The notes beneath the pieces are model-generated. The model was not told the origin of the DNA. It did no database searches and saw only the letters and a list, made by a program, of their open reading frames with translations. This document shows, piece by piece, positions 36,511 through 37,064 of a stretch of DNA of 64,000 bases. The first letter of the stretch is position 1, and the number at the start of each line of letters is the position of its first letter. The stretch is from a bacterium (GTDB taxonomy: Bacteria; SAR324; NAC60-12): NCBI GenBank assembly GCA_965233585.1, contig CBDDTI010000747.1, positions 768,001 to 832,000 of the forward strand. Reading direction: 5' to 3'. The position numbers were made by a program, and so were the translations under genes.

Positions 36511-36537
36511 TCAATAAATTTTTTATCCTGCCGATAA
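36511..36537 (+). promoter_or_regulatory. sigma-28 (FliA) promoter of the flagellin locus
   Basis: TCAA-N15-GCCGATAA, perfect -10, upstream of flagellin genes. Confidence 0.75.
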
Positions 36538-36545
36538 CTACTTAA

Positions 36546-37007
36546 CGGCAAATGACACTCAAAATATTGGATTAAAGAGTTTTGAGAAATTTGCCGATAC
36601 AAGACAAAAGTCTTACTTTAATGATCTTTTAAATTCACGGCTAAGCCGTACGACAATGACTAAAAGTCTGCGTCCCTTTTTTTAGGTTGATGCGACTTCA
36701 AGATGATTCAAACAAACTTGCGTGAGCAGGGTTGTTTCACTCATCAATCTTGATAAAGATGTGTGTGTCTTTGAAATTGACCTCTAGGTTTATTTTTTTG
36801 ACATAAGATCGGGAGAGATTGACAAAGCTCGTTTTCTTTGAGACGTCTTTGTACTTTCTTGCAAAAAACATTTCCCGTTGCAGTGTCTTTTGTACATTTG
36901 TAGAGGACATTTTTATCTTATGACATGACCCTGACAGGTTTCTGTTGATTTAATGGACTAAAAATAAGTTTTTAAGTCAATCAATGTTTGGTCTATTTTT
37001 CATGTCA
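36546..37007 (+). ncRNA. candidate structured RNA or long flagellin 5' leader
   Basis: About 9 consecutive stem-loops, several dependent on + strand G-U pairs; no ORF of 60 aa or more; begins right after the sigma-28 promoter. Confidence 0.5.
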
Positions 37008-37064
37008 TCACATCATTAAAAATTTATTTTCATTGTCGTTATTATCACAAAGAGGAGTACATTT

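Follow-up and report, generated by a model that had tools for sequence, protein, structure and literature searches.

Why should a sigma-28-type promoter stand half a kilobase ahead of the flagellin gene that it faces, and what is the DNA between them? The question is raised by a locus in a 64,000-nt stretch of DNA (the whole stretch that was analyzed, hereafter the window; coordinates are counted from its first letter) from a bacterium of the GTDB lineage SAR324, NAC60-12 (GenBank assembly GCA_965233585.1, contig CBDDTI010000747.1, positions 768,001 to 832,000 of the forward strand). The assembly amounts to 12.0 Mb in 747 contigs with 39.8% G+C, and the window is located on a contig of 1.07 Mb. 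A divergent intergenic region of 687 nt (36378-37064) is bordered by a subtilase gene on the minus strand at left and by the flagellin 1 gene on the plus strand at right (37065-38675, 536 amino acids [aa]; Pfam Flagellin_N E 1.2e-31, Flagellin_C E 8.4e-21). An earlier note on this DNA had suggested that the region encodes either a sigma-28-dependent small RNA (sRNA) or a very long regulatory 5′ leader. The promoter reading is well supported by sequence, and the long-leader layout recurs in related genera of the family; a regulatory role, as sRNA or as leader, is possible, and the fold turned out not to be exceptional. With confidence a little better than even, we read the 520 nt between two promoter motifs, P1 and P2, and the ATG of flagellin 1 as a sigma-28-driven, non-coding, folded 5′ leader (∼460-520 nt) of the flagellin messenger RNA (mRNA), and the window's leader as the local form of a family-wide 0.5-1.5 kb layout that consists of a sigma-28 motif, a gene-free gap and a flagellin gene.

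The first part of the answer concerns the promoters. The motif TCAA-N15-GCCGATAA pointed out in the earlier note is present exactly at 36511-36537 on the plus strand (P1; TCAA at 36511-36514 and GCCGATAA at 36530-36537). Its -10 box is exact and its spacer is 15 nt; the -35 sequence TCAA is a variant that also precedes two other flagellin genes. A second motif, P2, which that note lacked, was found 62 nt downstream of P1 on the same strand (TAAA-N16-GCCGATAC, 36573-36600, with GCCGATAC at 36593-36600). It has TAAA as the -35 box and a spacer of 16 nt, one base above the usual, and lies inside the 3′ half of the first hairpin described below. A genome-wide scan for T[ACT]AA-N14-16-GCCGATA gave 47 matches, among them TCAA-N15-GCCGATAC (the TCAA-N15-GCCGATA form) 34 nt and 60 nt upstream of two other flagellin open reading frames (ORFs) and TAAA-N15-GCCGATAT 111 nt upstream of a 95-aa ORF, which is flgM. 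The fliA gene is present as well (FliA_WhiG, 251.8 bits vs a cut-off of 189.6). Because the motif class precedes flgM and two further flagellin genes in a genome that carries fliA, it is credible as the organism's sigma-28 promoter; P1 is well supported by its sequence as a promoter of the sigma-28 (FliA) type, as the earlier note had it, and transcription from it is predicted to start near 36544-36546. The genome has 10 flagellin genes in three clusters. Three of them carry the strict motif within 2 kb, starting at -67, -93 and, for flagellin 1, -554, and among these motif-bearing genes flagellin 1 is the one with a long gap behind the motif. A sigma-54 promoter was rejected, since 36378-37064 contains zero GG-N10-GC and the best matches in the relatives reach 4-8 of 12 positions. 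Outside the window, TAAATATGTCTTTGCTCCTGCCGATAA occurs seven times in the genome, four times on contig C448 and three times on C653; each copy is located 40-49 nt upstream of a near-identical ORF of 463-488 aa, making up a tandem gene family with a perfect sigma-28-type promoter.

Next, we compared the orthologous flagellin loci of related genera. Of 44 further family genomes searched, 42 have orthologues of flagellin 1 with 48-67% identity, and the leader itself had no DNA match in 40 related genomes. The 29 best orthologous loci (L080-L108) were oriented and the upstream sequences were scanned for T[AC]AA-N15-(GCCGATA/GTCGATA/ACCGATA/GACGATA). Upstream sequence of 1188 nt or more was available for 20 loci; in 16 of them there are one to three motifs, located at -835 to -1487 from the ATG, with none nearer, and the nine loci with 0-998 nt upstream have no motif in that sequence. 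The motif-less loci among the 20 are L084, L085, L086 and L095, the last with a near-motif at -1479. Altogether 22 matches were found in 32,459 nt vs 0.09 expected from this genome's own rate, a count that overstates independence because the loci are kin. The motif-bearing loci span seven genera (g2, g3, g5, g7, g9, g11, and g12). Tandem motifs 70-89 nt apart were found in five of the loci (L080, L083 with three motifs, L089, L092, and L097), compared to 62 nt in the window. As a control, 20 other flagellin paralog loci of the same genomes were scanned; 10 of them have the motif, always at -83 to -341. It is therefore this orthologue group that is marked by the long gap, of which the window contains the shortest version. 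A same-orientation gene for an Rce1-like protease, with the promoter directly behind it, is the upstream neighbor in many relatives, whereas the neighbor in the window is the divergent subtilase gene; therefore only promoter, gap and gene travel together. As for the assemblies, the family genomes (G001-G060) gave up to 34 flagellin matches each, with the lowest numbers in the most fragmentary ones. Contigs end 0-60 nt upstream of the orthologous flagellin gene in L081, L082, L093, and L106, and assemblies tend to break there.

The gap does not seem to be filled by a gene or by a known RNA. The earlier note had seen no ORF in it, and this was correct in that the longest plus-strand ORF in the leader is 34 aa (TTG start) and two minus-strand ORFs of 57 and 59 aa have neither a Pfam match above the cut-off nor a counterpart in the relatives' leaders. 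A Pfam search of five small ORFs returned one sub-threshold match (15.7 bits vs a cut-off of 27). A conserved small protein was rejected after the stop-to-stop frames (22 aa or longer) of every leader had been compared all-against-all by blastp, with no match for the window's frames; the long ORFs seen in leaders of G+C-richer relatives overlap in several frames and belong to no Pfam family. A decayed flagellin gene was also rejected, as tblastn of the three flagellins of the window against all leaders yielded two matches only (E > 4). Rfam 15, including the cyclic di-GMP (c-di-GMP) classes, gave over 35500-39500 at E ≤ 10 chance-level fragments of small nucleolar RNA or SAM-II only, the best of them at 17.8-20.6 bits (E 2-10) and far under the gathering cut-offs, which agrees with the earlier reader's failure to recognize a riboswitch; 20 relatives' loci gave no match at the gathering score. 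There is no tRNA or tmRNA in the leader, nor are there tandem repeats. A dispersed repeat or miniature inverted-repeat transposable element was rejected, because the leader is single-copy and its best other blastn match in the genome is 28 nt at E 0.045.

To describe the RNA that P1 and P2 would produce, we folded the predicted non-coding 5′ leader (36545-37064, plus strand; ∼520 nt from P1 and ∼457 nt from P2), which has 33-36% G+C and is C-poor (15.8%) and U-rich. Against dinucleotide shuffles of both strands, the check that the earlier note had proposed, the plus strand reached -142.6 kcal/mol (z-score -5.33, none of 100 shuffles as good) and the minus strand -116.9 kcal/mol (z -3.62, none of 100). 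In 120-nt segments starting at 36440-36770 the plus-strand z is mostly -2.3 to -3.7, with four of 12 weaker (-1.2 to -1.75). On the minus strand z is near 0 from 36710 to 36920, where plus-strand segments starting at 36710-36800 have z of -1.7 to -3.3; the minus strand reaches -2.4 to -3.2 in the segments that cover the first hairpin. G-U pairs make up 19 of the 161 pairs in the plus-strand fold vs eight of 149 in the minus-strand fold, a bias toward the plus strand that had been noticed before. The partition function contains 22 helices of at least four pairs at P > 0.7.

The most prominent element is a predicted 5′-terminal hairpin at 36546-36596 (plus strand) with helices of 8 + 8 bp, pairing probabilities of 0.98-0.99 and a GGA in the apical loop. 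The outer helix is formed by CGGCAAAT (36546-36553) and ATTTGCCG (36589-36596), and the inner one by CTCAAAA (36558-36564) and TTTTGAG (36580-36586). Folded alone (36545-36600), the hairpin reaches -17.4 kcal/mol (z -5.67, none of 200 shuffles as good). It is followed on the same strand by two small stems, AAGAC/GTCTT (36601-36614) and ACGGC/GCCGT (36637-36649), and by a predicted multi-branch domain (36650-37039, pair probabilities 0.8-1.0) which is closed by a long-range helix of 10 bp (36650-36659 with 37030-37039). The domain encloses about six hairpins, placed by the partition function at 36665-36697, 36699-36752, 36764-36805, 36810-36877, 36883-36910, and 36920-37008; the last two contain the stems TGTCTTTTGTA/TGTAGAGGACA (36884-36894/36899-36909, four G-U pairs) and TGACATGA/TCATGTCA (36921-36928/37000-37007). 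All stems listed in the earlier note were recovered at their coordinates, those at 36664-36698, 36698-36753, ∼36764-36805, and 36811-36860 as parts of the minimum free energy (MFE) fold. The final 86 nt before the ATG are unstructured (z 0.14). A spacer upstream of another flagellin gene of this genome (C295:123662-124259), one of the background gaps considered below, shows a very large asymmetry, with -154.8 kcal/mol in the flagellin sense vs -70.3 kcal/mol on the opposite strand.

The leaders could not be aligned between genera, as blastn and nhmmer found the promoter and Shine-Dalgarno blocks only, and comparison at the nucleotide level was made within the sister genus g11. In seven full g11 leaders the promoter block is nearly invariant, conserved blocks are located at the 5′ end and at about -500 to -420, and the middle is variable. 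RNAalifold of the last 540 nt of eight g11 loci gave 63 consensus pairs. Compensatory changes occurred in 19 pairs vs 8.3 ± 1.9 in column shuffles (reached in none of 500) and 4-13 when partners were slid by 1-3 columns; it counts against the folded-leader reading that a single alignment served both for predicting this structure and for the counting, and that the eight loci are related. G-U pairs occupy 95 of 503 cells of the consensus, and 91% of cells pair on the sense strand vs 74% when read as antisense. These results support a sense-strand RNA structure in the modeled g11 leader. A covariance model of the g11 central hairpin recovered all eight training loci and nothing in the window or in other genera; a counterpart in the window was rejected, and the TTGCGT...TCTTGATAA likeness seen by eye was consequently treated as chance. 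Separately, L100-L108 (g11) share at about -500 to -430 a highly conserved double hairpin of ∼57 nt (GAAGGGAG...CTCTCTT inside CGTTTTGT...ATAAGACG) that has no Rfam match. It is followed by a second TTGCGTC copy; either TTGCGT copy is a possible partner of GACGCAG, and the 3′ copy has a further possible partner in GGAUGC, which is located between the Shine-Dalgarno sequence and the AUG. In some loci these three segments co-vary, and from its sequence the double hairpin looks like a possible alternative-pairing element.

We also scanned for sites at which transcription might stop. The sole terminator-like site inside the leader is a weak plus-strand hairpin at 36717-36730, CTTGC-GTGA-GCAGG followed by GTTGTTTCAC, ∼185 nt past the predicted start; its 5-bp stem is the tip of the longer GTGA-capped stem. 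The T runs at 36677 and 36793 are placed in a loop or follow a stem of 4 bp. After flagellin 1, an intrinsic-terminator-like hairpin of 14 pairs followed by TTTTTT (38744-38776, plus strand) is predicted to end the transcription unit. On the plus strand of the L083 leader no terminator-like site was found, and in the L100 leader the only one is the hairpin adjoining the Shine-Dalgarno sequence. The distant motifs across the family, the lack of a strong terminator inside the leader and the g11 compensatory changes lend support to the long-leader reading.

Apart from the origin of the g11 count, several results weigh against that reading, and part of them would suit a different explanation, namely that the promoter is real and the stretch behind it is a fast-evolving, largely neutral, expanding spacer whose hairpins are by-products of an AT-rich, G+U-skewed sequence and of small inverted duplications. 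For a background set we took 42 other gaps of at least 540 nt without an ORF of at least 80 aa on the four largest contigs; the middle 520 nt of each were folded and compared to 25 shuffles. Averaged over both strands, z was -1.84 (standard deviation 2.5), with some gaps possibly holding rRNA or other real RNAs, and six of the 42 reached z ≤ -5.3 on the better strand. The leader folds better than most comparable gaps of its own genome (top seventh), yet it is not an outlier. If the leader is neutral, then z near -5 is not rare in the long gaps of this genome and is not by itself proof of structured RNA. The 10-bp closing helix alone is not significant, as a perfect inverted repeat of at least 10 bp occurs in 22% of 60 shuffles. 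Leaders diverge far faster than the gene, with identities within genera of 0.73 vs 0.89, 0.55 vs 0.88, and 0.54 vs 0.84. The covariation that the earlier note had looked to in orthologous leaders could be followed in g11, as above; the window's own leader is not alignable with those of other genera, and the g11 hairpin model scored at best 6.3 bits in the window (E 0.83). The degree of structure varies among orthologous leaders: for the final 520 nt of 12 of them, sense z ranged from +1.0 to -7.1 (mean -3.27; antisense mean -2.58), and sense z was below antisense z in five of 12, yet the sense MFE was lower in 11 of 12. The leader of L080, from the closest relative (G008), holds at -610 to -420 from the ATG a tandem array of a ∼16-nt, AAAAGATCATTGAAT-like unit with a 10-letter core present nine times, and upstream of it a 72-aa ORF without Pfam match; part of the leader length in this lineage may therefore be expansion junk. 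The sequence AAAGATCATT, with nine copies in the L080 leader and an inverted one at 36629 of the window, was set aside as chance (85 seen in the genome vs 64 expected). The 930-nt gap upstream of flagellin 3 with its three tandem units of ∼111-127 nt points the same way as the L080 array. A neutral spacer does not readily account for a gene-free gap of 0.46-1.5 kb kept in eight genera (including this one) despite the turnover of its sequence, while another paralog group keeps short leaders. Nor would it be expected to give conserved blocks and compensatory changes above both controls in g11, or a 5′ hairpin individually far beyond shuffles, and the window's leader is free of tandem repeats and dispersed copies. 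We regard this explanation as unlikely.

Another group of observations concerns the DNA next to the gene and bears on the possibility that transcription from the sigma-28 promoters yields an independent non-coding RNA, or a leader RNA that ends prematurely after ∼200-450 nt, which would act in trans, the flagellin being expressed mainly from a promoter in a proximal AT-rich block. This block (37011-37045, plus strand) contains the sigma-70-like pair TTAAAA-N18-TATTAT at 37016-37045 (9/12 matches), and 24 nt of it are 92% identical to L094, the sole cross-genus likeness besides the promoter and the Shine-Dalgarno region. Sigma-70-like candidates just upstream of the gene were also found in L083 (11/12, at -136 to -107) and L100 (9/12). 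In most of 23 loci the AT content is higher in the proximal 130 nt than elsewhere in the leader, and AT-rich inverted repeats scoring at least 7 occur in 13 of the 23 proximal stretches vs four of 46 control stretches; both speak against a simple long leader. The g11 loci have an invariant TGTAAT-N17-TACAAA followed by a hairpin and the Shine-Dalgarno sequence. The hairpin at 36717-36730 could provide an early end, and MotR of Escherichia coli originates in such a way, from a sigma-28 promoter shared with motA (PMC10578931). On the other side, that hairpin offers a 5-bp stem with a poor U tract at the tip of a longer helix, and the sigma-70 scan of the region is at the shuffled level (six sites found vs 6.3 expected). 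AT-richness by itself inflates promoter-like matches and palindromes. Moreover, flagellin genes are typically driven by sigma-28, and a sigma-28 motif closer to the gene was found in none of the 29 relatives' loci. The AT-rich island may serve as a second promoter, as an A/U tract that recruits ribosomes or as a protein site. We regard a separate trans-acting RNA as unlikely, to the same degree as a neutral spacer. A third explanation takes the palindrome at 36546-36596 as DNA, an operator for a dimeric regulator over the P1 start and the -35/-10 boxes of P2, with the rest as ordinary promoter-distal DNA. Both hairpin helices are perfect Watson-Crick and equal on either strand, they form as DNA a perfect nested palindrome overlapping P2, and the minus strand also folds well there. 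The half-sites, however, have spacings of 35 and 13 nt, which operators seldom show, the adjacent genes include no regulator, and a DNA site does not explain the strand-specific, G-U-based signal at 36710-36920. We consider an operator very improbable.

Returning to the favored reading of a long sigma-28-driven leader, FliA-RNA polymerase would start near 36545, perhaps also at 36608, and read through into flagellin 1. Protection of the 5′ end would be provided by the 5′-terminal hairpin. Judging from what is generally known of Rho, the leader is probably a poor substrate because it is C-poor and helix-dense; no C-rich, G-poor segment was found in it, and its dense structure would keep Rho off this half kilobase of RNA that is not translated. 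Flagellin translation or mRNA life-time would then be open to post-transcriptional setting through the leader, and the control route could be CsrA at the Shine-Dalgarno GGA or processing to a shorter mRNA.

On contig C746, csrA (85.5 bits) and fliW (130.1 bits) are next to each other, so the CsrA/FliW partner switch known from Bacillus subtilis and Campylobacter jejuni is available to the organism. The Shine-Dalgarno sequence AGAGGAG (37051-37057, plus strand) is predicted to be 35-55% unpaired, and its context CAAAGAGGAGTACATT is closely like that of the flagellin on C745. Five GGA were counted in the 687 nt vs ∼6 expected from base composition; besides the one in the Shine-Dalgarno sequence (37054), the next is at 36955, 99 nt upstream and partly in a stem, and the GGA in the 5′ hairpin loop is 485 nt away. 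CsrA binding at the Shine-Dalgarno GGA is possible judging from the sequence. A two-site CsrA leader of the flaA/hag type was not found, as only the Shine-Dalgarno GGA is suitably placed, and a CsrA sponge of the CsrB/RsmZ type was rejected, as GGA is not enriched. Most orthologous loci have a small hairpin just 5′ of the Shine-Dalgarno sequence (-45 to -15) whose stem sequence differs by genus (GGTCA/TGACC, GGCC/GGCC, TTCGG/CCGAA, GCGC/GCGC, and CCGG/CCGG); flagellin 1 of the window has no clear counterpart.

Known systems resemble the predicted leader in part. The enterobacterial rpoS gene has a long regulatory leader of ∼570 nt. Shared with it are hundreds of untranslated, folded nucleotides, a possible role as post-transcriptional hub and the need to escape Rho; this is an analogy only, with no homology, no known sRNA partner and a Shine-Dalgarno sequence that is 35-55% unpaired, with no evidence of sequestration. 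In Clostridioides difficile, the flgB operon leader of ∼0.5 kb contains a c-di-GMP riboswitch and an invertible switch. It too is a structured leader of some 0.5 kb on a flagellar transcript (predicted in our case), but the window and 20 relatives' loci gave no riboswitch match in the Rfam searches above, a single orientation was seen, and the gene is a late flagellin rather than an early operon. The hag gene of Bacillus subtilis has a flagellin leader under CsrA/FliW control. The present locus shares with hag and with flaA of Campylobacter jejuni a sigma-28-type flagellin mRNA, a structured 5′ untranslated region (UTR; predicted here), a GGA in the Shine-Dalgarno sequence, and the csrA and fliW genes. 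The C. jejuni flaA 5′ UTR is 45 nt, with two stem-loops that each carry ANGGA ∼21 nt apart (PMC4894983), whereas the leader predicted here is ∼460-520 nt and lacks the two-site GGA arrangement. E. coli MotR, which is described as arising from the sigma-28 promoter shared with motA, ending at a terminator at the motA 5′ end and binding Hfq (PMC10578931), resembles our case, as do other UTR-derived sigma-28 sRNAs, in that a sigma-28-type promoter is located far ahead of a late flagellar gene and the 5′ UTR is possibly a functional RNA. Compared to MotR as described there, the RNA predicted here would be several times longer and has no sequence or Rfam relation to it; in place of a clear terminator there is the one weak terminator-like hairpin at 36717-36730, a candidate site for the release of a discrete RNA.

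The surroundings of the locus were examined as well. The subtilase gene at the left border (34761-36377, minus strand; Peptidase_S8 and P-domain, Pfam E 4.2e-38, taken from the ORF list) encodes an N-terminus that resembles a lipoprotein signal by sequence. The flagellin genes are arranged in tandem at 37065-38675, 38831-40282, and 41213-42667. In a flagellin search of genome contigs and metagenome contigs the closest match, which is also the best outside the family, was a SAR324 metagenome-assembled genome with 43% identity. In three of four sequencing runs the region is covered from end to end by contigs that show no differences; in the fourth, the junction of two contigs falls within it. 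All four runs come from two samples taken in a single study, and the assembly itself may have been built from them. No inversion, alternative orientation or joint was found at the region in these contigs, in which rare variants could be hidden. An invertible flagellar promoter switch was rejected, given inverted repeats of only 8-10 bp and a single orientation in the contigs of the four runs, and the same contigs gave no sign of an assembly error. Flagellin 2 has no sigma-28 motif and starts ∼55 nt after the flagellin 1 terminator. Directly after it, at 40290-40626, there are three tandem units of ∼111-127 nt, 70-91% alike, each with an inverted repeat CCGAAGT...ACTTCGG followed by a T-rich tail and, on the minus strand, a promoter-like match TTGACA-N16/17-AATAGT; from the sequence they look like an amplified terminator or spacer unit. 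The region upstream of flagellin 3 is gene-free over 930 nt (40283-41212) and has GCCGATAC at 40915, 298 nt before the ATG, without a TAAA/TCAA box at 15-16 nt. Farther left, a 125-aa ORF at 33594-33971 matches Pfam Phage_VG64 (PF25682, E 1.4e-51) and adjoins a ParA-like ATPase gene (32134-33075, minus strand).

A broader proposal, which we put forward tentatively and consider possible but rather doubtful, is that the family has an undescribed class of sigma-28-driven flagellin leader RNAs of 0.5-1.5 kb, transcribed from tandem FliA promoters, fast-evolving in sequence and genus-kept in fold, which would serve as a cis hub or dual-function RNA for one flagellin among at least 10 paralogs; the window would contain its shortest known member. 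Such RNAs would be kin of known kinds, the long regulatory leaders and the sigma-28 UTR RNAs such as MotR (PMC10578931). A full-text search of an open-access library found no report of a flagellin leader of such size, the papers that came up being general ones on CsrA or sRNAs, and among the SAR324 flagellin papers listed there the titles and opening lines of abstracts mention nothing on long leaders. The flagellin leaders described are short, 45 nt in C. jejuni flaA (PMC4894983), and CsrA/FliW control of them is the textbook case. Keeping a sigma-28 promoter 0.5-1.5 kb away from a flagellin gene throughout eight genera would amount to another solution. For RNA mapping and reporters, concrete targets are available in the promoter, the 5′ hairpin and the g11 blocks that are conserved. 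Should the gap be transcribed, this little-studied, uncultured lineage would have one of the longest 5′ leaders among bacteria.

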